From NCBI RefSeq assembly GCF_056746865.1, contig NZ_CM163382.1: a stretch of 64,000 nt of DNA; one strand, given 5' to 3'. The notes under the pieces were generated by a model. That model did not search any database, had not been told where the DNA came from, and was given only the letters and a program-made list of their open reading frames with translations. Made by a program: the position numbers and the translations under genes. The stretch's first letter is position 1; each line of letters starts with the position of its first letter. Shown piece by piece: positions 3,739 to 46,023 of this stretch.

Positions 3739-4751
3739 TAGTACAGATACTCCTGCACCAGTTTCTCGGCGATTTTTACTGCCATCAGCGCGCCGCCAAA
3801 GCGAACGTTATCGGCCACCGACCAGAACTGAACTTGCTCCGGCATACCGTAGTCATTACGTACGCAGCCAACGGAAAGATGCGGCGTACCAGAAGCATCC
3901 CCCACCTGAGTCGGGAATTCGTTCTCTTCAGAGAGCACAATATCTTCGCCCTGAGCAAACGCATCACGCGCTTCTTCTGCCGCCAGCGGACGCAGAGCTT
4001 CAAAGTTGACCATCTGGGCATGACCGTAGAATACCGGTGCCTGGACGACGCTTGCCGAAATCATCAGCCCTTCGTCCTGCAGGATTTTGCGTACTTCGTC
4101 AACGATACGACGTTCTTCACGCACGCTACCTTCGCTATCCGGCAGTAACGGCAGCATGTTGAACGCCAGCTGACGCCCGAAGAAATCTTCTTCATCAATC
4201 GGAATGCCGTTGAGCAATTTCGCACTCTGCCCCGCTAACGCATCGACCGCTTTTTTGCCCTGGGCGGAGGCTGAAATCAGGCTGGTAACGCTGATACGCG
4301 ACAAACCGCCCTGATCGATTAACGGTTTCAGTGCCGCCAGCAGTTGGCTGGTCAGACTGTCCGGTACGGCGATGACATTCCGGTTGCGGTAATCGGTCAG
4401 TACAAACGGGTTTACTTCCGGCACCACCAGCGGTACGTCAGGTTCGAGAGCAAACAATCCGCTGCTATCGATCACCAGGCAACCTGAGTTGGTCGCTTCT
4501 TCAACCCAGGCACCGGTAGCTTCTTTGCCTGCGACAAAAAACGCCAGCTGCGCCTGCGTCCAGTCGAATTCAGCGGCATCCTGCACGGTGATTGTCTTAC
4601 CACCAAAGCGCAGTTGTTCGCCTGCGCTTTCGTTACGTGCCAGTGCATAAATTTCCCCAACCGGGAACTGACGTTCAGCCAGCGTTTCAAGCAGGGCTTC
4701 GCCCACAGCGCCAGTTGCGCCCAGGACGGCAATGTTCCAGCCTTCAGACAT
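3738..4751 (-). CDS. usg: Aspartate-semialdehyde dehydrogenase paralog Usg-1
   Basis: 337-aa ORF with N-terminal NAD-binding GATGAVG motif; located between pdxB and truA. Confidence 0.85.
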
Positions 4752-4816
4752 GGTGGTTTACTCCAGAAATAGCAAAGCTCCCTGCCAATATTACAGCAGA
4801 GAGCATGAAGAAGAGA

Positions 4817-5953
4817 TTAACGTGCCGGATGATGAACGGCGTTAAAACCCAGTTTACACAGCAATGATGCCGCGCTGGCGTCATCACAAATTACATACAG
4901 AGATGACCATTCACGGCGCTCAAGATAGTTTTTGCGCAGCTTATCGAACTCACCCGGTATTCCGGCGACTTTACGCAGCGGTGCGTCATCGCGGCGCACA
5001 TCATACACCAAATGCACCAGCCTTTTCAGCGTCGGTTGATCGAGCGGGCCATGCAGCGTAATGCGGCCAAACTCTGGCGCGGGCAGCAACGTATCCAGCG
5101 CAACGTGTTGTTCATGCCCAATAAACTTGCTATAAGCTTCAAACACTTGCGTAGTACCGCGTGCTTTACCTTCCAGGGTATAGCCTGCGATATGCGGCGT
5201 GCCGATATCCACTTTTTTCAGCAATTCCACGTTGAGTTCCGGTTCGCCTTCCCAGACATCCAGCACTACGCTTAACTTCTGGCCTTCGTTCAGACAGGTC
5301 AATAGGGCAGTATTATCGACGACTGCGCCACGGCAGGCGTTAATCAGAATCGCTCCTGGTTTCAGGCTACGGATCAGTTTTTCATCCGCCAGATGCAGCG
5401 TTTTGTACGGCCCGTCTTTGAAGAGTGGCGTATGGAAAGTCAGAATATCCGCATGCTGAACTAATTCATCCAGCGAGCGGAAATCCCCCTCATCCCCACG
5501 GTCGGCGCGAGGCGGATCGCAAAGCAAGGTTGTAATCCCTAACGCTTCCAGTCGCGCCTGTAAACGGCGACCAACGTTACCAACGCCCACGATCCCCACT
5601 GTACGGTCGTGCAGTGAAAATCCATCGCGTTCGGCAAGCATCAGCAGTGAGGAGAAAACATATTCCACCACCGCAATCGCATTACAGCCTGGTGCCGCGG
5701 AAAAACCAATTCCCGCCTGCTTTAACCACGCTTCATCGACATGGTCGGTCCCCGCGGTGGCAGTGCCAACAAATTTAATGGGTTTTCCTCCCAGCAAAGA
5801 TTCATTCACTTTCGTGACCGAACGCACCATCAGCGCATCCGCGTCTGCCAGTTGAGCCACGGGGATTGGACGCCCGGGAACCGCGGTCACCTCACCCAAA
5901 CGGCTAAATAAGTCGCGGGCATAAGGCATATTTTCATCAACAAGGATTTTCAC
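4817..5953 (-). CDS. pdxB: Erythronate-4-phosphate dehydrogenase
   Basis: 378-aa [25 protein letters not shown] with D-2-hydroxyacid dehydrogenase fold motifs (GIVGVGNVG). Confidence 0.92.
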
Positions 5954-6051
5954 GTTTGTGTTACCTGTATGAGACGAGAGTTAACCGGACAAGTGTGCCA
6001 TAATCTCGCGGCCAGGCATACTTGCGAAGATTTCAGGTATAAGGATACGTA

Positions 6052-8225
<2,174 letters not shown>

Positions 8226-8385
8226 TTACTCCAGAATGCAGCGCAAGGCGAGGAGTATCCCCGTCTCATCTCTCTGGTTTCAGGGTTACGGTGCGTTGGC
8301 AGGATTTAACGCGTACGTCTTTTCAGAAGGAAATCGACAAAGCGGGAAGTTTGCCTGGAACAGGCGGCGATTGTCAATGATGTGA

Positions 8386-8412
8386 AAAAGGGAACCATCG
8401 GGTTCCCTTTTG
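8386..8412 (-). terminator. Rho-independent terminator hairpin downstream of fabB (bidirectional A/T flanks)
   Basis: GGGAACC-ATCG-GGTTCCC stem-loop flanked by A-run and T-run. Confidence 0.55.
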
Positions 8413-8443
8413 CATTAGTGCCGGAGGCGGTATTGGTGCATAT

Positions 8444-8480
8444 CGTCGGATGCGACGCTGGCGCGTCTTATCCGACCTAC
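8444..8480. repeat. REP-like palindromic element
   Basis: TCGGATGCGACGCTGGCGCGTCTTATCCGACCTAC resembles the REP consensus (GCCGGATGCG...CTTATCCGGCCTAC). Confidence 0.55.
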
Positions 8481-8506
8481 TCCGAGCTACTCCGACCTAC
8501 TGCGAA

Positions 8507-9727
8507 TTAATCTTTCAGCTTACGCATTACCAGCGTGGCGTTGGTGCCGCCGAAGCCGAAGCTGTTAGACATCACGGTGGTCAGTTCGCGATCGGTCGTT
8601 TCGGTCACGATGTTCAGACCCGCAGCCTGTTCGTCCAGCTCTTCAATGTTGATGCTCGGGGCGATAAAGCCGTGTTCCAGCATCAGCAGAGAGTAGATAG
8701 CTTCCTGTACGCCAGCAGCGCCCAGAGAGTGACCGGTCATTGCTTTGGTTGCAGAAATCGCCGGGCTCTTATCGCCGAACACTTCACGGATAGCCGCCAG
8801 CTCTTTCACGTCGCCAACCGGAGTCGAAGTACCGTGGGAGTTCAGGTAGTCGATTGGGGTATCAACACCGTGCATCGCCATCTTCATGCAACGCACTGCG
8901 CCTTCGCCAGACGGAGCAACCATGTCTGCGCCATCAGACGTTGCGCCGTAGCCAACGATTTCAGCGTAGATATGAGCACCACGTGCCAACGCGTGTTCCA
9001 GTTCTTCGACCACCACCATACCGCCGCCGCCAGCGATAACGAAACCGTCACGGTGAGCGTCATAAGTACGGGAGGCTTTTTCCGGGGTGTCGTTGTATTT
9101 GGTAGACAGCGCGCCCATTGCGTCGAATTCGCAGGCCATTTCCCAGCACAGCTCTTCGCCGCCGCCAGCAAACACGATATCCTGTTTGCCCAGTTGGATC
9201 TGCTCTACTGCGTTACCGATACAGTGCGCGGAAGTCGCACATGCGGAGCTGATGGAGTAGTTAACGCCGTGAATCTTAAACGGCGTGGCGAGGCAGGCAG
9301 AAACGCCGGATGCCATCGCTTTGGTGACCACATACGGGCCTACCGCTTTCAGGCCGCGCGGGCCGCGCATTGCGTCAGCGCCGAACACCTGAAAACGCGG
9401 GGAACCGCCGCCGGAACCTGCAATCAGGCCAACGCGCGGGTTATTCTGGTAAGCTTCCGGGGAGAGGCCAGCATCTGCAATTGCCTGCTCCATAGAAAGG
9501 AATGCATAAATGGATGCGTCGCTCATAAAGCGCACAACTTTGCGGTCAATGAGGCCAGTGGTATCCAGTTTTACGTTGCCCCAGACGTGGCTACGCATGC
9601 CGGAATCCTTCAGCTCCTGAGAGAAAGTGATCCCTGAACGTCCTTCACGCAGAGATGCCAGGACTTCCTGCTGGTTATTACCGATGCTGGAAACAATGCC
9701 CAGGCCAGTAATCACTGCACGTTTCAT
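8507..9727 (-). CDS. fabB: 3-oxoacyl-ACP synthase I (KAS I)
   Basis: 406-aa [25 protein letters not shown] with condensing-enzyme active-site region (Cys...His...His). Confidence 0.95.
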
Positions 9728-32522: not shown

Positions 32523-33770
32523 ATGCTACCATCTATTTCAATCAACAATACCAGCGCAGCTTACACAGAATCCATCAATGAAAATAACAATGATGAAGTT
32601 AATAGATTAGTACAAGAGCTCAAAAACCTTTTTAATGGTAAGCAAGGAATAAGCACCTGTGTTAAACATCTACTTGCGCTTATAAAAAACGCCATACGAG
32701 GAAACGACAATCCTGATAGATTTAATATTAATAATTCCTCAGTTACTTATATTGATATTGGCTCCAATGATACAGACCACATTACTATTGGTATCGATAA
32801 CCAAGAAACAATAAAATTACTTGCGAGCTATAAAGACAAAGAACTCGTCCGTGCTATCATTAATGACAACATAGTTGAGAAGACTCATGATGATATAAAT
32901 AATGCTGACTTTACTGATGGTAGTATCGTTGTTAGTGGTAATAAGGGTGCTATTGACTCCAATGATACAGCCGATATTACTAGTGGTATCTATAATCAAG
33001 AACCAATAAAATCACCTACGAACGATGAAAACAAAAAAGTCGGCCAAACCATCATCCATGAAAATGTAGTAGAGAATACTCATGATATCAATAACAAGGA
33101 AATGATCTTCAGCGCATTAAAAGAAATATATGATGGAGATCCTGGTTTTATCTTCGATAAGATATCACAAAAACTCAGACATACGATAACGGAATTTGAT
33201 GAGAATGGGAAAAGCGAACCAACGGACTTATTTACCTGGTACGGTAAAGATAAAAAAGGCGATTCTCTCGCTATTGTAATTAAAAATAAAAACGGAAATG
33301 ATTACTTATCTCTCGGTTACTATGATCAGGACGACTACCACATTCAAAGAGGAATTCGTATTAATGGTGATAGTCTCACCCAATATTGTAGTGAAAAAGC
33401 CAGGAATGCTTCAGCGTGGTTTGAAAGCAGTAAAGCTATCATGGCAGAATCATTTGCAACAGGTTCCGATCATCAGGTTGTAAACGAGCTCAACGGGGAA
33501 AGACTGAGAGAGCCAAACGAAGTTTTTAAACGTTTAGGTCGAGCAATAAGATATAATTTTCAAGTAGACGATGCAAAATTTAGACGCGATAATGTAAAAG
33601 AAATAATTTCTACTTTAGTCGATAACGAAGTTGACCGTTCTCAAAATAAATATGACCACTTTAAGGAAATCGAAGATAAAGTTGAAAAAAGGCTTCAAAA
33701 TCGCCAGGCTAAATATCAAAATGAAATTAATCAACTATCTGCATTGGGTGTTAATTTTGATGATAATTAA
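32523..33770 (+). CDS. yfdF: Uncharacterized AT-rich protein YfdF-like, with internal ~65-aa tandem duplication
   Basis: 415-aa ORF MLPSISINNTSAAYTESINENNNDE; Asn/Asp/Lys/Ile-rich and low GC; sits between fadL and mlaA as yfdF does in E. coli. Confidence 0.7.
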   Translation: MLPSISINNTSAAYTESINENNNDEVNRLVQELKNLFNGKQGISTCVKHLLALIKNAIRGNDNPDRFNINNSSVTYIDIGSNDTDHITIGIDNQETIKLLASYKDKELVRAIINDNIVEKTHDDINNADFTDGSIVVSGNKGAIDSNDTADITSGIYNQEPIKSPTNDENKKVGQTIIHENVVENTHDINNKEMIFSALKEIYDGDPGFIFDKISQKLRHTITEFDENGKSEPTDLFTWYGKDKKGDSLAIVIKNKNGNDYLSLGYYDQDDYHIQRGIRINGDSLTQYCSEKARNASAWFESSKAIMAESFATGSDHQVVNELNGERLREPNEVFKRLGRAIRYNFQVDDAKFRRDNVKEIISTLVDNEVDRSQNKYDHFKEIEDKVEKRLQNRQAKYQNEINQLSALGVNFDDN

Positions 33771-36005: not shown

Positions 36006-36080
36006 GTCCTCTTAGTTAAATGGATATAACGAGCCCCTCCTAAGGGCTAATTGCAGGTTCGATTCCTGCAGGGGACACCA
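36006..36080 (+). tRNA. argW: tRNA-Arg (anticodon CCU)
   Basis: GTCCTCTTAGTTAAATGGATATAACGAGCCCCTCCTAAGGGCTAATTGCAGGTTCGATTCCTGCAGGGGACACCA: 75 nt, cloverleaf-compatible, CCU anticodon in the loop, 3-prime CCA. Confidence 0.9.
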
Positions 36081-36521
36081 GATACCCTTCTAACAATATC
36101 TACCTTCACCCCGTAAAAGATGGGTTTGGCAGCACACTTGCCCTATATCTACTCATTTTTACTGCAACAGGTTGAAATCTCAGCACTGTCAGAAAGCGCT
36201 GATGACTAAACAGCCCTGGGCCGGGCGATGTAACCATCATACAGAATCCTGATAGCGAAATATGGCGTGACTCGATACTTCACTCTGCAATGCGTTCCTT
36301 GATGAATTCGCAGGCCCGTGATACACGGGACAAGTCGCTGAATGACGACAATGTCCTGGAAATCAGCGAACCGCGTATCCGGAGTACATTTGAGCGACTG
36401 TACCAGAACATGAATGAGGCGTTTGGATTAGGTGATTATTAGTTGGGCTAAGCATTTTTGTATTATTATTTTCCGGTTGAGGGATATGGAGATATCGACA
36501 ACAACCGGAAAAAGTTTACGT

Positions 36522-37769
36522 CTATATTGCTGAAGGTACAGGCGTTTCCATAACTATTTGCTCGCGTTTTTTACTCAGGAAGAAAATGCCAAATAGCAAC
36601 ATCAGGCAGACAATACCCGAAATTGCGAAGAAAACTGTCTGGTAGCCTGCGTGGTCAAAGAGTATCCCAGTCGGCGTTGAAAGCAGCACAATCCCAAGCG
36701 AACTGGCAATTTGAAAACCAATCAGAAAGATCGTCGACGACAGGCGCTTATCAAAGTTTGCCACGCTGTATTTGAAGACGGATATGACACAAAGTGGAAC
36801 CTCAATGGCATGTAACAGCTTCACTAATGAAATAATCCAGGGGTTAACGAACAACGCGCAGGAAAGGATACGCAACGCCATAATCACAACACCGATAAGT
36901 AATGCATTTTTTGGCCCTACCCGATTCACAAAGAAAGGAATAATCGCCATGCACAGCGCTTCGAGTACCACCTGGAATGAGTTGAGATAACCATACAGGC
37001 GCGTTCCTACATCGTGTGATTCGAATAAACCTGCATAAAAGACAGGAAAGAGTTGTTGATCAAAAATGTTATAGAAAGACCACGTCCCCACAATAAATAT
37101 GACAAAAACCCAGAAGTTTCGATCCTTGAAAACTGCGATAAAATCCTCTTTTTTTACCCCTCCCGCATCCGCCGCTACACACTGGTGACCCTTATCTTTA
37201 AAACGCATGTTGATCATCATAAATACAGCGCCAAATAGCGAGACCAGCCAGAAGTTGATATGGGGACTGATACTAAAAAATATGCCGGCAAAGAACGCGC
37301 CAATAGCATAGCCAAAAGATCCCCAGGCGCGCGCTGTTCCATATTCGAAATGAAAATTTCGCGCCATTTTTTCAGTGAAGCTGTCAAGCAAACCACATCC
37401 CGCCAGATACCCCAGGCCAAAAAAGAGCGCCCCCAGAATTAGACCTACAGAAAAATTGCTTTGCAGTAACGGTTCATAAACGTAAATCATAAACGGTCCG
37501 GTCAAGACCAGAATGAAACTCATACACCAGATGAGCGGTTTCTTCAGACCGAGTTTATCCTGAACGATGCCGTAGAACATCATAAATAGAATGCTGGTAA
37601 ACTGGTTGACCGAATAAAGTGTACCTAATTCCGTCCCTGTTAATCCTAGATGTCCTTTCAGCCAAATAGCGTATAACGACCACCACAGCGACCAGGAAAT
37701 AAAAAAGAGAAATGAGTAACTGGATGCAAAACGATAGTACGCATTTCTGAATGGAATATTCAGTGCCAT
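36522..37769 (-). CDS. cscB: Sucrose:H+ symporter (oligosaccharide:H+ symporter family, MFS) CscB
   Basis: 415-aa 12-TM ORF MALNIPFRNAYYRFASSYSFLFFISWSLWWSLYAIWLKGHLGL, LacY-like sucrose permease. Confidence 0.88.
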   Translation of the reverse strand: MALNIPFRNAYYRFASSYSFLFFISWSLWWSLYAIWLKGHLGLTGTELGTLYSVNQFTSILFMMFYGIVQDKLGLKKPLIWCMSFILVLTGPFMIYVYEPLLQSNFSVGLILGALFFGLGYLAGCGLLDSFTEKMARNFHFEYGTARAWGSFGYAIGAFFAGIFFSISPHINFWLVSLFGAVFMMINMRFKDKGHQCVAADAGGVKKEDFIAVFKDRNFWVFVIFIVGTWSFYNIFDQQLFPVFYAGLFESHDVGTRLYGYLNSFQVVLEALCMAIIPFFVNRVGPKNALLIGVVIMALRILSCALFVNPWIISLVKLLHAIEVPLCVISVFKYSVANFDKRLSSTIFLIGFQIASSLGIVLLSTPTGILFDHAGYQTVFFAISGIVCLMLLFGIFFLSKKREQIVMETPVPSAI

Positions 37770-37830
37770 AATTACCTGCCCGTCGTTAAAAAATTCATGT
37801 CCTATTTAGAGATAAGAGCGGCCTCGCCGT

Positions 37831-38754
37831 TTACTTCTCACTTTCCAGTTCTTGTCGACATGGCAGCGCTGTCATTGCCCCTTTCGCTGTTACTGCAAGC
37901 GCTCCGCAACGTTGAGCGAGATCGATAATTCGTCGCATTTCTCTCTCATCTGTAGATAATCCCGAAGAGGACAGACCTGTGAGTAACCCGGCAACGAACG
38001 CATCTCCCGCCCCAGTGCTATCGACACAATTCACAGACATTCCAGCAAAATGGTGGACTTGTCCTCGATAACAGACCACCACCCCTTCTGCACCTTTAGT
38101 CACCAACAGCATGGCGATCTCATAATCTTTTGCCAGGGCGCATATATCCCGATCGTTCTGTGTTTTTCCACTGATAAGTCGCCATTCTTCTTCCGAGAGC
38201 TTGACGACATCCGCCAGTTGTAGCGCCTGCCGCAAACACAAGCGGAGCAAATGCTCGTCTTGCCATAGATCTTCACGAATATTGGGATCGAAGCTGACAA
38301 AACCTCCGGCATGCCGGATCGCCGTCATCGCAGTAAATGCGCTGGTACGCGAAGGCTCGGCAGACAACGCAATTGAACAGAGATGTAACCATTCGCCATG
38401 TCGCCAGCAGGGCAAGTCTGTCGTCTCTAAAAAAAGATCGGCACTGGGGCGGACCATAAACGTAAATGAACGTTCTCCTTGATCGTTCAGATCGACAAGC
38501 ACCGTGGATGTCCGGTGCCATTCATCTTGCTTCAGATACGTGATATCGACACCCTCAGTTAGCAGCGTTCTTTGCATTAACGCACCAAAAGGATCATCAC
38601 CGACCCGACCTATAAACCCACTTGTTCCGCCTAATCTGGCGATTCCCACCGCAACGTTAGCTGGCGCGCCGCCAGGACAAGGCAGTAGCCGCCCGTCTGA
38701 TTCTGGCAAGAGATCTACGACCGCATCCCCTAAAACCCATACTTTGGCTGACAT
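37831..38754 (-). CDS. cscK: Fructokinase CscK (ribokinase/pfkB family)
   Basis: 307-aa ORF MSAKVWVLGDAVVDLLPE with pfkB signature (DSTGAGDAFVAGLL). Confidence 0.9.
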   Translation of the reverse strand: MSAKVWVLGDAVVDLLPESDGRLLPCPGGAPANVAVGIARLGGTSGFIGRVGDDPFGALMQRTLLTEGVDITYLKQDEWHRTSTVLVDLNDQGERSFTFMVRPSADLFLETTDLPCWRHGEWLHLCSIALSAEPSRTSAFTAMTAIRHAGGFVSFDPNIREDLWQDEHLLRLCLRQALQLADVVKLSEEEWRLISGKTQNDRDICALAKDYEIAMLLVTKGAEGVVVCYRGQVHHFAGMSVNCVDSTGAGDAFVAGLLTGLSSSGLSTDEREMRRIIDLAQRCGALAVTAKGAMTALPCRQELESEK

Positions 38755-38858
38755 TTTTTTCCCTTAAATTCATCTGACTTACGCATAGTGATAAACCTCT
38801 TTTTCGCAAAATCGTCATGGATTTACTAAAACATGCATATTCGATCACAAAACATCAT

Positions 38859-38936
38859 AGTTAACGTTAACATTTGTGATATTCATCGCATTTATGAAAG
38901 TAAGTGACTTTATTTTTATAAAAGTTAACGTTAACA
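38859..38936. promoter_or_regulatory. Divergent cscK/cscA promoter region with two identical palindromic 14-mers (candidate CscR operators)
   Basis: AGTTAACGTTAACA occurs at 38859-38872 and 38923-38936; each is itself palindromic (GTTAAC x2); LacI-family repressors bind such dyads. Confidence 0.5.
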
Positions 38937-38960
38937 ATTCACCAAATTTGCTTAACCAGG

Positions 38961-40403
38961 ATGATTAAAATGACGCAATCTCGATTGCATGCGGCGCAAA
39001 ACGCACTAGCAAAACTTCACGAGCGCCGAGGTAACACTTTCTATCCCCATTTTCACCTCGCGCCTCCTGCCGGGTGGATGAACGATCCAAACGGCCTGAT
39101 CTGGTTTAACGATCGTTATCACGCGTTTTATCAACATCACCCGATGAGCGAACACTGGGGGCCAATGCACTGGGGACATGCCACCAGCGACGATATGATC
39201 CACTGGCAGCATGAGCCTATTGCGCTAGCGCCAGGAGACGAGAATGACAAAGACGGATGTTTTTCAGGTAGTGCTGTCGATGACAATGGTGTCCTCTCAC
39301 TTATCTACACCGGACACGTCTGGCTCGATAGTGAAGGTAATGACGATGCAATTCGCGAAGTACAATGTCTGGCTACCAGTCGGGATGGTATTCATTTCGA
39401 GAAACAGGGTGTGATCCTCACTCCACCAGAAGGAATCATGCACTTCCGCGATCCTAAAGTGTGGCGTGAAGCCGACACATGGTGGATGGTAGTCGGGGCG
39501 AAAGACCCAGGCAACACGGGGCAGATCCTGCTTTATCGCGGCAGTTCATTGCGTGAATGGACTTTCGATCGCGTACTGGCCCACGCTGATGCGGGTGAAA
39601 GCTATATGTGGGAATGTCCGGACTTTTTCAGCCTTGGCGATCAGCATTATCTGATGTTTTCCCCGCAGGGAATGAATGCCGAGGGATACAGTTATCGAAA
39701 TCGCTTTCAAAGTGGCGTAATACCCGGAATGTGGTCGCCAGGACGACTTTTTGCACAATCCGGGCATTTTACTGAACTTGATAACGGGCATGACTTTTAT
39801 GCACCACAAAGCTTTGTAGCGAAGGATGGTCGGCGTATTGTTATCGGCTGGATGGATATGTGGGAATCGCCAATGCCCTCAAAACGTGAAGGCTGGGCAG
39901 GCTGCATGACGCTGGCGCGCGAGCTATCAGAGAGCAATGGCAAACTCCTACAACGCCCGGTACACGAAGCTGAGTCGTTACGCCAGCAGCATCAATCTAT
40001 CTCTCCCCGCACAATCAGCAATAAATATGTTTTGCAGGAAAACGCGCAAGCAGTTGAGATTCAGTTGCAGTGGGAGCTGAAGAACAGTGATGCCGAACAT
40101 TACGGATTACAACTCGGCACAGGAATGCGGCTGTATATTGATAACCAATCTGAGCGACTTGTTTTGTGGCGATATTACCCACACGAGAATTTAGACGGCT
40201 ACCGTAGTATTCCCCTCCCGCAGGGTGACACGCTCGCCCTAAGGATATTTATCGATACATCATCCGTGGAAGTATTTATTAACGACGGGGAAACGGTGAT
40301 GAGTAGCCGAATCTATCCGCAGCCAGAAGAACGGGAACTGTCGCTCTATGCCTCCCACGGAGTGGCTGTGCTGCAACATGGAGCACTCTGGCAACTGGGT
40401 TAA
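38961..40403 (+). CDS. cscA: Sucrose-6-phosphate hydrolase / invertase CscA (GH32)
   Basis: 480-aa ORF with GH32 motifs (WMNDPNG, RDP, EC); alternative start at ATG 38970 (MTQSRLHAA) gives 477 aa. Confidence 0.9.
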   Translation: MIKMTQSRLHAAQNALAKLHERRGNTFYPHFHLAPPAGWMNDPNGLIWFNDRYHAFYQHHPMSEHWGPMHWGHATSDDMIHWQHEPIALAPGDENDKDGCFSGSAVDDNGVLSLIYTGHVWLDSEGNDDAIREVQCLATSRDGIHFEKQGVILTPPEGIMHFRDPKVWREADTWWMVVGAKDPGNTGQILLYRGSSLREWTFDRVLAHADAGESYMWECPDFFSLGDQHYLMFSPQGMNAEGYSYRNRFQSGVIPGMWSPGRLFAQSGHFTELDNGHDFYAPQSFVAKDGRRIVIGWMDMWESPMPSKREGWAGCMTLARELSESNGKLLQRPVHEAESLRQQHQSISPRTISNKYVLQENAQAVEIQLQWELKNSDAEHYGLQLGTGMRLYIDNQSERLVLWRYYPHENLDGYRSIPLPQGDTLALRIFIDTSSVEVFINDGETVMSSRIYPQPEERELSLYASHGVAVLQHGALWQLG

Positions 40404-40410
40404 CATAATA

Positions 40411-41406
40411 TCAGGTGGAACAACGGATCAACAGCGGGCAAGGGATCCGCGTCACTCTTCCCCCTTCACGACCTTCAATAATATGCAATGCAGCTTCCCG
40501 CCCGATAATGTCATGTGGAAGCTGAATTGTGGTCAGCGGCGGTAAAAACAGATGCCCGACGCCAACCAGATTATCAAAGCCCATTACGGCGACATCCTGC
40601 GGGATACGTACCCCCTTCGCCAGGAGAACCTGATAAGCGACAAAGGCTGCGCGATCGTTACCACATATCAGAACATCAAAATCTGGTTTGCCAGATTTGA
40701 AGTGGTCATTGAGTAAACTTGCGAGATCGGTGTAGTGATCATCACCTGTTGCCATGTGAAATTGTTTCACCTCAGCCAGATCTCGTCCAGCATCACGCCA
40801 GGCCTGCTCAAATCCCTGCCGACGATACCCTGTTGCCAACGCACTTTCCGGTAGCCAGAAGCATAACGGTTGACGATAGCCCGCCGCGAGCAAATGCTGT
40901 GTTGATTCATATTGTGCAGTGTAATCATCAGGGATATAACTGGGTAACGCTGGGTCATCCGCAACACAGTTCGCCAATACAATATTTTCACCATACAGAG
41001 ACTCAGGCAGCGTGATATGTCGCAGCCCCATTGTAGTATAGATAATGCCATCCGGACGGTGGGCAAGCAGCTGACGTGCCGCGCGGGCAGCGTCATCTTC
41101 AGAAAAAATATTGATTAAAAAACTATTCCAGCCGAACTCGCTGGCGGTTTGCTCAATGGCAAGCAGAATATCAACAGAGAAAGGAGTGGTAGCCGTGTCC
41201 TGCGCCAGCACGGCGAGAGTCGACGGCTTACGTCCTTGAGCGCGCATCTTACGGGCGGAAAGATCAGGAACATAATTCAGGGTCTGGATTGCCTGCAATA
41301 CGCGGTTACGCGTTGCAGGACGCACAGATTCTGCATTATGCATCACCCGGGAGACTGTCATCATCGACACTCCCGCCAGGCGTGCGACATCCTTTAATGA
41401 AGCCAT
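40411..41406 (-). CDS. cscR: LacI-family sucrose operon repressor CscR
   Basis: ORF 40411..41604 contains MASLKDVARLAGVSMMTVSRVMHN (LacI HTH); start trimmed to ATG 41406 (331 aa). Confidence 0.88.
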   Translation of the reverse strand: MASLKDVARLAGVSMMTVSRVMHNAESVRPATRNRVLQAIQTLNYVPDLSARKMRAQGRKPSTLAVLAQDTATTPFSVDILLAIEQTASEFGWNSFLINIFSEDDAARAARQLLAHRPDGIIYTTMGLRHITLPESLYGENIVLANCVADDPALPSYIPDDYTAQYESTQHLLAAGYRQPLCFWLPESALATGYRRQGFEQAWRDAGRDLAEVKQFHMATGDDHYTDLASLLNDHFKSGKPDFDVLICGNDRAAFVAYQVLLAKGVRIPQDVAVMGFDNLVGVGHLFLPPLTTIQLPHDIIGREAALHIIEGREGGRVTRIPCPLLIRCST

Positions 41407-41636
41407 ACCCAAGCCGTTTGCCGTAAAACGGGCACTGTAGCAGAAACAGACGTCACTGGCGAGATCCAACGATATTCTCGACGCCCTATCACCCGACACG
41501 GCAATACAATAAAAAATAACAATAATTCCCGGACAATTGTACCCAATTCCGCCTCTGTTCTCGCCAACGAGTAACCATGTAGGCAAGTAGGTAAAACATG
41601 CCAACTGGCATCGCCAATCTGGAGAAGAAAATATAA

Positions 41637-41867
41637 ATATGGATCATTGTGCTGGCGCTGTATCCCGACATCAGCCCGGAAATTTTTACGATTGATATCG
41701 GTTCAAGTGCAATTGGCTGCACGATCGTTACGGACTCGCTTTTCTGGCTGGTGAAGCAATATTGCGGCGCTACGCTCAATGAAACATTTAAATACTATAC
41801 GACAGCGACATTTATCGCTTCAGTCGTCGCTCTGGCGGGCACATTCCTGCTGTCATTTATCATCTAA
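41637..41867 (+). pseudogene. dsdX: 3-prime remnant of D-serine permease gene dsdX (GntP family), truncated by the csc insertion
   Basis: Frame open from 41637 with no upstream coding continuation; hydrophobic C-terminal sequence ...[49 protein letters not shown]... matches my recollection of the DsdX C-terminus; directly upstream of dsdA. Confidence 0.65.
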
Positions 41868-41884
41868 GCGCAAAGAGACGTACT

Positions 41885-43216
41885 ATGGAAAACGCTAAAA
41901 TGAATTCGCTCATCGCCCAGTATCCGTTGGTAAAGGATCTGGTTGCTCTTCAAGAAACCACCTGGTTTAATCCTGGCACGACCTCATTGGCTGAAGGTTT
42001 ACCTTATGTTGGCCTGACCGAACAGGATGTTCAGGACGCCCATGCGCGCTTATCCCGTTTTGCACCCTATCTGGCAAAAGCATTTCCTGAAACTGCTGCT
42101 ACTGGGGGGATTATTGAATCAGAACTGGTTGCCATTCCGGCTATGCAAAAACGGCTGGAAAAGGAATATCAACAACCGATCAGCGGGCAACTGCTACTGA
42201 AAAAAGATAGCCATTTGCCCATTTCCGGCTCCATAAAAGCACGCGGCGGGATTTATGAAGTCCTGGCACATGCAGAAAAACTGGCTCTGGAAGCGGGGTT
42301 GCTGACGCTTGAAGATGACTACAGCAAACTGCTTTCTCCGGAGTTTAAACAGTTCTTTAGCCAATACAGCATTGCTGTGGGCTCAACCGGAAATCTGGGG
42401 TTATCAATCGGCATTATGAGCGCCCGCATTGGCTTTAAGGTGACAGTACATATGTCTGCTGATGCCCGGGCATGGAAAAAAGCGAAACTGCGCAGCCATG
42501 GCGTTACGGTCGTGGAATATGAGCAAGATTATGGTGTTGCAGTCGAGGAAGGACGTAAAGCAGCGCAGTCTGACCCGAACTGTTTCTTTATTGATGACGA
42601 GAATTCCCGCACGTTGTTCCTTGGGTATTCCGTCGCAGGCCAGCGTCTTAAAGCGCAATTTGCCGAGCAAGGTCGTATCGTCGATGCTGATAACCCTCTG
42701 TTTGTCTATCTGCCGTGTGGTGTTGGCGGTGGTCCTGGTGGCGTCGCATTCGGACTTAAACTGGCGTTTGGCGATCATGTTCACTGCTTTTTTGCCGAAC
42801 CAACGCACTCCCCTTGTATGTTGTTAGGCGTCCATACTGGATTACACGATCAGATTTCTGTTCAGGATATTGGTATCGACAACCTTACCGCAGCGGATGG
42901 CCTTGCAGTTGGTCGCGCATCAGGCTTTGTCGGGCGGGCAATGGAGCGTCTACTGGATGGCTTCTATACCCTTAGCGATCAAACCATGTATGACATGCTT
43001 GGCTGGCTGGCGCAGGAAGAAGGCATTCGTCTTGAACCTTCGGCACTGGCGGGTATGGCCGGGCCTCAGCGCGTGTGCGCATCAGTAAGTTACCAACAGA
43101 TGCACGGTTTCAGCGCAGAACAACTGCGTAATGCCACTCATCTGGTGTGGGCGACGGGAGGTGGAATGGTGCCGGAAGAAGAGATGGAGCAATATCTGGC
43201 AAAAGGCCGTTCATAA
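41885..43216 (+). CDS. dsdA: D-serine dehydratase (ammonia-lyase)
   Basis: 443-aa [34 protein letters not shown] with PLP-lysine region (SGSIKARGG). Confidence 0.95.
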
Positions 43217-43321: not shown

Positions 43322-44860
43322 TCACCCAACGCCTTTCGCTGTAAACGGCGGTTTCGCAAACCAAACCAATACCGTAAGTAAGATAAAAGCAATAGCCGCC
43401 ATACGGAAAATCTCATTTGCAGAAATTGAAAGTGACTGCTGAGTTATTTCATTATTAATTTCATTAAGAACCCCTGAAAGCGAACCATAGTATTTATCCA
43501 TAATTTGTGACGATGAATTAAACACGGGGTTAAATTGATCGATTGTTGCTGTCAACTGACTATGGTGTAATGATTCTCGGCGTCCCCACAGCGTCATTGT
43601 CAACGACGTACCAACTGATCCTGACAAGGTACGAAAAAAATTACTCATACTCGAGGCATTGGCAAATTTATTATCTGGCAAACCTGAAAACGAAATCGTT
43701 GTTAAGGGTAAAAAGAAACAGGCGACGGCGAATCCCTGAAAAAACTGTGGCAAAATGATGCCTGTAAAATCAATCGTTGGCATAAATGTCACAGAACGCC
43801 AGTAATAGCAAACCGCATACATTAAAAAACTAAATGTCACCAACAACCGCATATCAATTTTGTTGCCATAACGTCCTATCAAAGGTGATATTAATAGCGG
43901 CATGATGCCGATGGGCGCATAGGCAAGTCCGGCCCATATCGCATTATACCCCATCGTTTCCTGGAGTAACTGCGGCATAAGGACTATCGCCCCAGAGTAA
44001 AATAAATACGCGCATGTGATACTCACAATACCAATGGTGAAATTACGGGACTTAAACAAACTGAGATCAAGAATCGGGTTCTCTGAGGTCGACTCCCAAA
44101 TGACTAAAGAAATCAGAGAAATAACTGACACTACTGTTAGTATTATTATTGTACTCGAGTTGAACCAATCCAGGTCGCGCCCTTTATCAAGCATTATCTG
44201 CAAGCCACCAACACCGAGCACTAACAGGGTCAGTCCTGGTAGATTCATTTTGACCGGTGAAGTCTCAGTTTCTCTTCCTTTAAGTAAGGTTAAGCATAAT
44301 GTCAGAACGATAATCCCCATAGGGACATTGATTAAAAATATCCAACCCCAGCTAAAGTTATCGCAAATATAGCCGCCCAATATCGGCCCACATATCGGAG
44401 CGATAATTACGGTCATTGACCATAATGCCAAAGCAAATGTTCTTTTTTCTGGCGGATAATTCCTTAATAATAAACTCTGTGACAGTGGAATTAACGGCCC
44501 CGCCATTAACCCCTGAACGACTCTAAAAAATATCAGCACATCAAGATTGGTCGATAGGCTACACATTAAGGAAGACAGCGAAAAAAAAGTGACTGAAAGT
44601 AAAAATAATCTTAATTCGCCTATTCTTTGTGCCAGCCTGCCGGTAACAGGGATCGCAATGGCATTTGCTACGCCAAACGAAGTGATAACCCAGGTGCCTT
44701 CGTCTGTTGATGCTCCCAGAAAGCCAGATATTGTCGGTATTGCGACGTTAGAAATAGTGGAATCCAACATTTGCATAAACGTCGCTAATGACAATGCAAT
44801 AGTGACGCACCATAACGTCCCACCGGTTAATGGTGCCGGAGTTGATTTAGTGATTGCCAT
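43322..44860 (-). CDS. emrY: Multidrug efflux MFS transporter EmrY (EmrB paralog)
   Basis: 512-aa 14-TM ORF; overlaps emrK stop. Confidence 0.9.
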   Translation of the reverse strand: MAITKSTPAPLTGGTLWCVTIALSLATFMQMLDSTISNVAIPTISGFLGASTDEGTWVITSFGVANAIAIPVTGRLAQRIGELRLFLLSVTFFSLSSLMCSLSTNLDVLIFFRVVQGLMAGPLIPLSQSLLLRNYPPEKRTFALALWSMTVIIAPICGPILGGYICDNFSWGWIFLINVPMGIIVLTLCLTLLKGRETETSPVKMNLPGLTLLVLGVGGLQIMLDKGRDLDWFNSSTIIILTVVSVISLISLVIWESTSENPILDLSLFKSRNFTIGIVSITCAYLFYSGAIVLMPQLLQETMGYNAIWAGLAYAPIGIMPLLISPLIGRYGNKIDMRLLVTFSFLMYAVCYYWRSVTFMPTIDFTGIILPQFFQGFAVACFFLPLTTISFSGLPDNKFANASSMSNFFRTLSGSVGTSLTMTLWGRRESLHHSQLTATIDQFNPVFNSSSQIMDKYYGSLSGVLNEINNEITQQSLSISANEIFRMAAIAFILLTVLVWFAKPPFTAKGVG

Positions 44861-46023
44861 TAAAGTTGTCCATTATGCGAAATAATGTTGCTAATTTCTT
44901 TTTCTATCGGACTGGTATCGATAACTAAAGCCTTACTGGTATAAGCAGGCATGGACGTCACGGTTGAAGCCAGATCGGGCATCTCGGCAATGTCTTCGTT
45001 CCTGGTATCAATAGTTGCAGTCATCGATAAACCAATGCGCAAGGGATGTTCCATGAGTTCTTTTGGATCAAGAGAAACTTCAACCGGGACACGCTGAACG
45101 ATTTTGATCCAGTTCCCTGTCGCATTTTGTGCAGGTAATAAGGAGAACGCATTGCCGGTTCCCATATTGATCCCTGTCACCCGACCATGAAACACAACAT
45201 TTTCACCATAGAGATCGCTGATAATATTGACCGATTGACCAATCCGTACATCCGTGAGTTGTGTTTCTTTAAAGTTGGCATTAACCCACATTTGACGTGC
45301 CGGTACAACAGCCATTAACGATTGTCCGGGACTCACTGTTTCGCCAACCTGAACGCTTCTCTGGGCAATATAGCCGGTAACAGGACTCTTAATATCCGTA
45401 CGTTTAAGCACTAACCAGGCTTCTTTGGTTGCATCCGCCGCTTCAACGACTTGTGGCTGACGGTTTAATGGTGTGTTCATTACTAAAGCTTTATTCGCTT
45501 TATAAGCCTGAATAGCAGCATTCAATGCCGCTTTGCTACTTATTAACGTATCTTTGGTATGCTCCAGCGTTTCTTTTGAAATAACCCCCTGCTTCGCTAA
45601 AGGTACACGACGGTTATAATCTTCTAAAGATTGTTGATACTGAATACGTGCTGAAGCGACTTCGGCACTGTATTGTTTATCCTGTAAGTACAGTTTATTC
45701 GTTTGCCGAACAATATTGGCCAGATTATTTTTAGCTTTATTGAGTGCGATAGTGGCATCAGTCTTATCCAGTGAGACTAAAATGTCACCCTGTCGAACGT
45801 AGTTCGTATCTTTATGATTAACGACAGTGACGCTGCCTGAAACTTGTGCAGAAATTGGATCTGCATTCCCCGTGACATAGGCGTCATCTGTACTAATCAT
45901 GTCTTCTAATTCCATTGACCAATAGGCATAGGCACCTGAAAACGCAATAAATAAAACTACCGCCAATAAAGAAAAGTATTTTCTTCTGTTAGAATGTTTT
46001 TTATTTGAATTAATCTGTTCCAC
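44860..46023 (-). CDS. emrK: Multidrug efflux membrane-fusion protein EmrK (EmrA paralog)
   Basis: 387-aa ORF MEQINSNKKHSNRRKYFSLLAVVLFIAFSG, HlyD-family. Confidence 0.9.
   Translation of the reverse strand: MEQINSNKKHSNRRKYFSLLAVVLFIAFSGAYAYWSMELEDMISTDDAYVTGNADPISAQVSGSVTVVNHKDTNYVRQGDILVSLDKTDATIALNKAKNNLANIVRQTNKLYLQDKQYSAEVASARIQYQQSLEDYNRRVPLAKQGVISKETLEHTKDTLISSKAALNAAIQAYKANKALVMNTPLNRQPQVVEAADATKEAWLVLKRTDIKSPVTGYIAQRSVQVGETVSPGQSLMAVVPARQMWVNANFKETQLTDVRIGQSVNIISDLYGENVVFHGRVTGINMGTGNAFSLLPAQNATGNWIKIVQRVPVEVSLDPKELMEHPLRIGLSMTATIDTRNEDIAEMPDLASTVTSMPAYTSKALVIDTSPIEKEISNIISHNGQL

Follow-up and report, generated by a model that had tools for sequence, protein, structure and literature searches.

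A chromosomal csc sucrose catabolism regulon between argW and a truncated dsdX in Escherichia coli

We analyzed a 64,000-nucleotide stretch of DNA, here called the window, from contig NZ_CM163382.1 of RefSeq assembly GCF_056746865.1. ARAGORN and Rfam (tRNA model, 63.4 bits) both place a single tRNA-Arg(CCU) gene, argW, on its plus strand at 36006–36080. Four intact open reading frames follow directly: cscB (36522–37769, minus strand), cscK (37831–38754, minus), cscA (38970–40403, plus) and cscR (40411–41406, minus), with cscA and cscR convergent and 7 bp separating their stop codons. A first-pass annotation, made from the sequence alone, had described this block as genes for a sucrose permease, a fructokinase, a GH32 invertase and a LacI-type repressor. 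The open reading frames and NCBIfam profiles bear this out, with family matches for all four genes, and newer RefSeq records at 98–99% identity name them cscB, cscK, cscA and cscR. Primers designed on E. coli W also match the expected gene ends with 0–1 mismatch, one of them lying inside a DUF4942 relic described below and one inside dsdA. In K-12 MG1655 the order is argW, CPS-53, dsdC, dsdX and dsdA, as the first-pass annotation had stated, and differs from that found here.

The limits of the inserted DNA were set by alignment to LD67-1, a genome in which argW is followed by dsdC, dsdX and dsdA. The left breakpoint (36080|36081) coincides exactly with the 3′ end of the tRNA gene and the right breakpoint falls at 41649|41650, where dsdX homology begins. 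The inserted DNA, which is not in K-12, therefore covers 36081–41649 (5,569 bp), its right end (41407–41649) being the upstream region of cscR. Megablast piece boundaries concur with both breakpoints, and in csc-free genomes similarity to the junction query sets in only at base 401, which corresponds to 41650. Of the span 36081–41884 originally assigned to the island, the part up to 41649 thus holds, while the remaining 235 nt are native and consist of the dsdX remnant and the dsdX-dsdA spacer.

Of dsdX, which encodes the D-serine transporter and measures 1,338 nt when complete, the last 218 nt remain (41650–41867, plus strand), or 72 codons and the stop, amounting to 16% of the gene in the LD67-1 alignment; RefSeq lists this remnant as a pseudogene 'missing N-terminus'. 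Next to it dsdA (41885–43216, plus) is intact and encodes a 443-residue D-serine ammonia-lyase (TIGR02035, 812 bits), the exact protein having SDHD_ECOLU as its UniRef representative. We found no dsdC between argW and dsdA in either the open reading frame list or the RefSeq annotation, so that the earlier statement that dsdC and most of dsdX are displaced stands. In the proposed course of events the 5.57-kb segment would have taken the place of dsdC, of the spacer between argW and dsdC, and of 1,120 nt at the start of dsdX. This leaves dsdA without both the transporter DsdX and its activator DsdC, and given the missing activator we predict that the strain does not use D-serine. The same combination of dsdC loss and dsdX truncation with a silent dsdA has been reported for EDL933 and W (PMC7486766, PMC3032704).

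Because cscA and dsdA share direction, transcription from a sucrose-induced cscA promoter might conceivably run on across cscR, in antisense, and reach the dsdX remnant and dsdA. A scan of the plus strand from 40403 to 41833 returned no terminator-like site. Expression of dsdA driven by the cscA promoter has been published only for deletions that remove cscR (PMC7486766), and we regard read-through in the present arrangement as unlikely. If it did occur, wild-type read-through would make D-serine deaminase inducible by sucrose and would damp cscR as well.

The product of cscB is a 415-residue sucrose:H+ symporter of the LacY-like MFS type, which scores 593 bits against TIGR00882 (cut-off 220) and matches LacY structures with E=5e-63. 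CscB residues D129, R147, R300, H320 and E323 align to LacY E126, R144, R302, H322 and E325, respectively. The column of LacY E269 is occupied by CscB V267 in the pairwise alignment, with E270 lying three residues off. With a profile score above the cut-off and the charge-relay and substrate residues kept except in the E269 column, CscB belongs to the oligosaccharide:H+ symporter family. At each end of the gene there is an exact match to a W primer (cscB_F2 and cscB_R2). For cscK, which is present as a 307-residue allele of the pfkB family, the fructokinase equivalog NF006957 gives 507 bits (cut-off 450), and the nearest solved structure is the fructokinase 5ey7 (E=7e-96), with the aminoimidazole riboside kinase 1tyy behind it (E=1.5e-68).

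CscA, a GH32 sucrose hydrolase (invertase) of 477 residues, reaches 481 bits with TIGR01322, the scrB/GH32 subfamily profile (cut-off 356), and among solved structures 7vco is the nearest to it (E=2e-173). The enzyme has the GH32 catalytic motifs WMNDPNG (nucleophile) at residue 36, RDP at 160 and ECP at 215, the EC of the last being the acid/base. In the protein collection the identical protein is recorded for at least 1000 contigs. In keeping with a LacI/GalR repressor built of an N-terminal helix-turn-helix and a sugar-binding core, CscR (331 residues) has LacI-family profile matches that span residues equivalent to 1–330, scores well under the cut-offs of CytR, RbsR, PurR and other equivalogs, and has a solved homologue in 6ndi (E=1e-113); the RefSeq name of a 99%-identical cscR is 'sucrose operon repressor CscR'. 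The mechanical open reading frame list begins both genes further upstream, at 38961 for cscA and 41604 for cscR. We favour 38970 and 41406, the RefSeq starts, the latter of which would place a LacI-type helix-turn-helix at the N-terminus of CscR. Lineage-specific substitutions of this allele are G194 in CscB, N34 in the N-terminal DNA-binding region of CscR, and S121, E122, E369 and T442 in CscA. As a side observation, CscR residue 132 is T here; PMC3938415 describes a W mutant as Q132* but also lists Q57* for what is maybe the same mutant, so that we give this comparison no weight.

Sucrose is also the substrate of the scr PTS regulon of Klebsiella, pUR400 and E. coli B2 lineages, which likewise encodes a GH32 hydrolase, a pfkB fructokinase and a LacI-type repressor. 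A reading of the locus as such a PTS-type system (ScrA, ScrY, ScrB, ScrK, ScrR) might be suggested by the older RefSeq label of cscA, 'sucrose-6-phosphate hydrolase', by placement of the enzyme in the NCBIfam 'scrB_fam', and by the sucrose-6-phosphate hydrolase label on its nearest structure. However, uptake in scr proceeds by EII-Scr and the porin ScrY, whereas the transporter here is a LacY-like MFS symporter, as in csc, and not an Enzyme II; no porin or EII gene lies in 36081–41649. The two hydrolases differ in substrate (sucrose-6-phosphate for scr, sucrose for csc), newer RefSeq records call the present enzyme 'sucrose hydrolase', and the chromosomal locations of the two systems differ too. 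We thus consider the scr reading scarcely credible and treat the locus as csc.

Divergent promoters had been proposed for the block, and the cscK-cscA intergenic region (38755–38969, 215 bp) has features consistent with this, namely two palindromes and a CRP-like site. The perfect 12-bp palindrome GTTAACGTTAAC occurs twice, at 38860–38871 and 38924–38935; these are its only perfect matches in the 64-kb window, and they were also detected as repeat families D2 and I1. The CRP-like site TGTGATATTCATCGCA at 38875–38890 has 1 mismatch to TGTGA-N6-TCACA. As far as the work of Jahreis et al. (2002) is summarised in PMC11251922, the published csc layout consists of two 12-bp inverted repeats and a Crp site in the cscK-cscA intergenic region, and the sites found here lie at those places. 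Judged by this fit of sequence and layout, the GTTAACGTTAAC pair corresponds to the published CscR operators.

What each component does is known from published work on near-identical loci, and these functions are carried over to the present locus by sequence. CscB would bring unphosphorylated sucrose into the cell by proton symport, and CscA, as a cytoplasmic GH32 hydrolase, would cleave it to glucose and fructose. CscK would then convert fructose to fructose-6-phosphate, with glucose being taken by the host glucokinase. Bound to its two operators, CscR is expected to repress the divergent cscKB and cscA units, and cAMP-CRP would activate them from the site adjoining the operators. Tight repression by CscR leaves wild-type strains slow on sucrose, or in need of a high concentration of it (>1% in E. 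coli W).

Between argW and cscB lies a 441-bp spacer (36081–36521, plus strand), a constant companion of csc that is present in its entirety in 2,623 genomes. The spacer and the gene relic within it are absent from the first-pass annotation. The relic derives from an internal part of a DUF4942 gene; homology extends over 36206–36433, and a residual 50-codon open reading frame (36290–36442), which RefSeq labels 'DUF4942 domain-containing protein', was also found as a stub by exact-sequence cluster look-up. By tBLASTN the relic is identical at 38 of 76 positions to residues 76–151 of a 281-residue DUF4942 protein of C41(DE3) (E=8e-19). In C41(DE3) the full-length gene is found distally in a cbtA/DUF5983/DUF957 island. 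It adjoins setC, a core gene that stands beside the tRNA gene selC in K-12. Because DUF4942 genes sit at the far end of a CP4-type island, the relic is likely a scar of a CP4-type integrative island that served as delivery vehicle. The residual frame is probably z3622 of EDL933, an assignment made from the position described in PMC7486766.

The csc loci of EC3132 and W (Bockmann 1992; Jahreis 2002; Sabri 2013; Archer 2011, PMC3032704) have their genes in the same order and orientation, lie likewise between argW and a shortened dsdX, and share both 12-bp operators as well as the Crp site; only allelic differences appear when the comparison is made by published descriptions and the W primers. 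The present locus agrees with the published csc regulon of EC3132, W and EDL933 in content, order, orientation and position, and in having replaced dsdC and the 5′ part of dsdX (PMC3032704, PMC7486766, PMC11251922), which supports the first-pass identification. The cscBKAR genes of EDL933 O157:H7 (z3623–z3626; PMC7486766) have the same junctions and the same silent-dsdA situation. In an O157:H7 genome the csc genes are 98.6–99.2% identical to those of the window and the spacer 95.7%; the differences are a prophage that separates argW from the 441-bp spacer, and a 304-residue CscK allele that arises from a 1-nt indel close to the stop. The dsdCXA locus of K-12 and UPEC occupies the same chromosomal slot at argW and shares dsdA and the dsdX 3′ end, but here csc replaces dsdC and 84% of dsdX. 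Taken together, 36081–41649 is almost certainly the chromosomal csc regulon for non-PTS sucrose catabolism of E. coli, at its canonical site and derived from an old single insertion. A csc locus at argW is already known and ordinary, as about half of complete E. coli genomes have it.

We observed identical architecture and junctions in 2,645–2,656 of 5,426 complete E. coli genomes. Among these csc-positive genomes are O157:H7, ST167 and a lineage whose spacer is only ∼90% identical. This most divergent spacer variant and an odd right junction were inspected as candidates for a more complete form of the island, but the former has an unchanged layout and the latter is due to an IS50R insertion. 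Between lineages the csc genes are 98.1–99.4% identical, compared with 97.1–99.2% for the flanking core genes. The G+C content of the segment (0.480) is close to that of the window (0.485), with 0.477 and 0.438 in the flanks; cscB alone is lower (0.436), but the segment as a whole is not foreign in this respect. No integrase was found in 36081–41649 in the open reading frame list or RefSeq annotation. Between 35900 and 42000 the 3′ end of argW is not repeated in the manner of att sites, and there are no IS ends at the junctions.

The first-pass annotation had called the block horizontally acquired and a marker of the strain background. Were this a mobile island that recently entered the strain, and so marked its background closely, one could point to the adjoining tRNA integration hotspot (used by CPS-53 in K-12 and by P22-like prophages both in O157:H7 and among 'phage' records), to the polymorphic presence of csc and to the relic of an island gene within the segment. 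This is contrasted by the unremarkable G+C content, the lack of an integrase and of an att-like repeat, the ∼2,650 genomes with identical junctions, the unchanged layout in the lineage with the ∼90% identical spacer, and a between-lineage divergence equal to that of the flanking core genes; no true plasmid in PLSDB carries csc either. Recent acquisition is therefore very improbable. Horizontal acquisition is retained for the deep past, and the locus marks the background coarsely rather than closely, given that about half of complete genomes carry it. Since the segment is not compositionally foreign and has diverged in step with the flanking core genes, the comparisons indicate a polymorphism that is old and of single origin, and that marks the background only coarsely. 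One ancient insertion would have been followed by inheritance and recombination within E. coli.

Signs of present mobility were looked for and not found. A mobile integrative island at the tRNA gene would be one without integrase, direct repeats or deviant G+C content, with only a 76-codon relic of an island gene left. Four full-length plasmid records in PLSDB measure 0.37–4.9 Mb, with at least 3 of them being chromosome-scale, and the remaining matches are unrelated GH32 genes at ∼73% identity. In four 'phage' records csc stands at the very end of the record beside an excisionase, and we take them to be prophages at argW that were deposited together with flanking host DNA rather than phages with csc as cargo. 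Outside E. coli, csc has been described in Citrobacter and a few other taxa (PMC11251922).

The surrounding 24.9 kb is 100% identical to many isolates, including SCU-313, a phylogroup D, ST69 strain that is csc-positive and scr-negative and whose sucrose growth is given as 'Slow' (PMC11251922, Table 1). We predict that the present locus would likewise confer slow, repressor-limited growth on sucrose. Intact genes do not guarantee growth, as five csc-positive, scr-negative isolates fail to grow on sucrose, 4 of the 5 with no obvious lesion in the locus (PMC11251922). These isolates, together with the private substitutions of the allele, leave some room for a locus that is cryptic or non-functional and supports no sucrose growth in this strain. 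We regard this as quite unlikely in view of four full-length open reading frames with intact motifs and the slow growth of SCU-313, which is completely identical over the same 24.9 kb.

Small additions made here are the exact junctions, the signs that the locus arose once and long ago, and the DUF4942 relic, which hints at an eroded CP4-type island as the vehicle; they leave the understanding of the csc system unchanged. The value of the locus is practical only: it predicts slow growth on sucrose and no use of D-serine, and it excludes K-12, phylogroup A and most B2 backgrounds while being consistent with phylogroup D, ST69.

We mapped the boundaries of the insertion by aligning the window to LD67-1, a comparison genome in which argW is directly followed by dsdC-dsdX-dsdA. 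The only tRNA gene of the window, tRNA-Arg(CCU) at 36006-36080 (+ strand), is preceded by mlaA and yfdC, as is argW in E. coli K-12. Identity with LD67-1 extends to 36080, the last base of the tRNA, is lost from 36081 and returns at 41650, within dsdX. Breakpoints at 36080/36081 and 41650 agree with the megablast piece boundaries of two whole-collection searches (query bases 1-181 and 5751-6201 in the full-locus search, and from base 401 in the right-junction search). The inserted DNA therefore comprises 36081-41649, or 5,569 bp. The D-serine activator gene dsdC is absent, only 218 of the 1,338 nt of the transporter gene dsdX are left (dsdX', 41650-41867), and dsdA is intact (41885-43216; D-serine ammonia-lyase equivalog, 812 bits). 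K-12 MG1655 has the order argW, 10.2-kb CPS-53 prophage, 15-bp attR remnant, dsdC, dsdX and dsdA, as the first-pass annotation had stated. Its claim that a csc island between argW and dsdA displaces dsdC and most of dsdX is borne out by this junction alignment, together with four ORFs and their NCBIfam families.

These ORFs are cscB (36522-37769, - strand, 415 aa), cscK (37831-38754, -, 307 aa), cscA (38970-40403, +, 477 aa) and cscR (40411-41406, -, 331 aa). A mechanical ORF list extends cscA upstream to 38961 and cscR to 41604; the shorter forms are favored by the start codons that RefSeq assigns in a genome of 100% identity and, for CscR, by a LacI-type helix-turn-helix at its very N-terminus. 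By NCBIfam, CscB falls in an oligosaccharide MFS transporter subfamily (593 bits, cut-off 220), CscK is a fructokinase equivalog (507 bits, cut-off 450), CscA belongs to the scrB/GH32 subfamily (481 bits, cut-off 356), and CscR is a LacI family member that reaches none of the cut-offs set for other named repressors. All three GH32 catalytic motifs are present in CscA (WMNDPNG at 36, RDP at 160 and ECP at 215). LacY structures align with CscB over its full length (E=5e-63), placing D129, R147, R300, H320 and E323 at LacY positions E126, R144, R302, H322 and E325. Among solved structures, CscK matches a fructokinase (E=7e-96) better than aminoimidazole riboside kinase (E=1.5e-68), and the name "aminoimidazole riboside kinase" in older RefSeq annotation is therefore a naming artefact.

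In the 215 bp between cscK and cscA, the palindrome GTTAACGTTAAC occurs twice without mismatch (38860-38871 and 38924-38935), 64 bp apart, and the 64-kb window has no further perfect copy. The two copies bracket a CRP-like site, TGTGATATTCATCGCA (38875-38890), that departs from the core consensus at one position. This matches the layout of published csc regulation, in which two 12-bp inverted repeats on either side of the cscA promoter act as CscR operators and a Crp site is also present (described by Jahreis et al. 2002, via PMC11251922; PMC3938415). This layout, the protein families and the names cscB, cscK, cscA and cscR in newer RefSeq records 98-99% identical to the window genes support the earlier reading as the known csc regulon. 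The 61-bp gap between cscK and cscB is consistent with the reported cscKB operon. The genes cscA and cscR are convergent, with stop codons 7 bp apart. Within 40403-41885, a scan found no terminator-like site on the + strand between cscA and the dsdX' end, so that transcription from cscA could continue, antisense to cscR, in the direction of dsdA.

The component functions are established in the literature for near-identical loci. Judging from sequence, CscB would import sucrose by proton symport, CscA would hydrolyze it in the cytoplasm and CscK would phosphorylate the fructose, while CscR would keep the two divergent units repressed until sucrose reaches a high level, with a requirement for cAMP-CRP. 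With DsdC and DsdX both missing, dsdA should be silent and D-serine not used, as shown for the csc strains W (PMC3032704) and EDL933 (PMC7486766). For the window's exact sequence, the nearest approach to a phenotype is that of SCU-313, an isolate 100% identical across the queried 24.9 kb; it is phylogroup D, ST69, csc+ and scr-, and its sucrose growth was scored "Slow" (PMC11251922).

Three other csc alleles were compared, from cS51a, O157:H7 and an ST167 strain. A 1-nt indel at the cscK 3' end (37831-37845, - strand) yields two CscK alleles, one of 307 aa ending ...QELESEK (window and cS51a) and one of 304 aa ending ...QELE (O157:H7 and ST167), probably with no functional effect. Substitutions private to the window, meaning absent from all three, are CscB G194 (D in the others), CscR N34 (likewise D, within the N-terminal DNA-binding region) and CscA S121, E122, E369 and T442. 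Outside the island, a low-GC ORF of 415 aa at the yfdF position (32523-33770, +; GC 0.345, GC3 0.281) has no NCBIfam match; its alignment to the 352-aa YfdF of an ST167 strain consists of two blocks (85% and 81% identity), and it has an extra middle segment. The emrY/emrK genes (43322-46023, -) have a GC of 0.419, below their neighbors, and are the most divergent flanking genes between lineages (97.1-97.4% identity).

The first-pass annotation had missed the content of the 441-bp argW-cscB spacer, an internal relic of a DUF4942 gene (36206-36442, +) kept in ~2,620 csc+ genomes. Stop-free translation of 36206-36433 (+) gives 76 residues, which share 50% identity with positions 76-151 of a DUF4942 protein of 281 aa (E=8e-19). 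The residual ORF at 36290-36442 is probably z3622 of EDL933, judged solely by the z3622/promoter position described in PMC7486766. Our literature search found no paper linking csc with DUF4942. In the one CP4-type island examined, that of C41(DE3), the full-length DUF4942 gene closes a cbtA/DUF5983/DUF957 island at its distal end and adjoins the core gene setC, whose neighbor in K-12 is the tRNA gene selC. The fragment and argW lie on the same strand, the arrangement expected at the far end of a CP4-type island. We infer from this sequence evidence that argW may once have hosted an integrative island of CP4 type, which fits a left breakpoint exactly at the tRNA end; deletions would later have cleared away the bulk of it along with attR, and also dsdC and the 5' portion of dsdX. 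The csc genes may have been cargo on this island or may have come in independently.

A PLSDB search found no true plasmid with csc, its full-length matches being 0.37-4.9 Mb long, at least three of them of chromosome size. The locus also stands at the extreme end of four "phage genome" records, P22-like and other, directly after an excisionase gene (ON470594.1, at 4001-9569, and three further records). These look like argW prophages deposited with host flank.

Among 5,426 complete E. coli genomes, 2,645 carry the full csc locus, 2,656 the cscR-dsdX'-dsdA junction and 2,623 the left spacer. The same layout recurs in O157:H7, in an ST167 strain and in a lineage whose spacer is only ~90% identical. 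Compared with O157:H7 or ST167, the window shows 98.1-99.4% identity in the csc genes and 97.1-99.2% in the flanking mlaA, yfdC, dsdA, emrY, emrK and evgA. A GC check had been proposed for 36.1-41.9 kb; run as island versus window it gave 0.480 versus 0.485. No integrase (by gene content) and no att-like repeat were found at the insertion. Prevalence, core-like divergence, GC and the absent integrase and att-like repeat show that the locus is not a recent acquisition; "horizontally acquired", as the module was described earlier, applies only to the distant past. As a marker of strain background the locus serves coarsely but, given its frequency, not closely: almost all members of phylogroups B1, D and E carry it, few of B2 do, and none of A or F (PMC11251922). 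The csc system, already known in detail, is an ordinary and common E. coli feature, and its shared layout, core-like divergence, host-like composition and lack of integrase or att-like repeats thus make it one old insertion-deletion polymorphism within E. coli.
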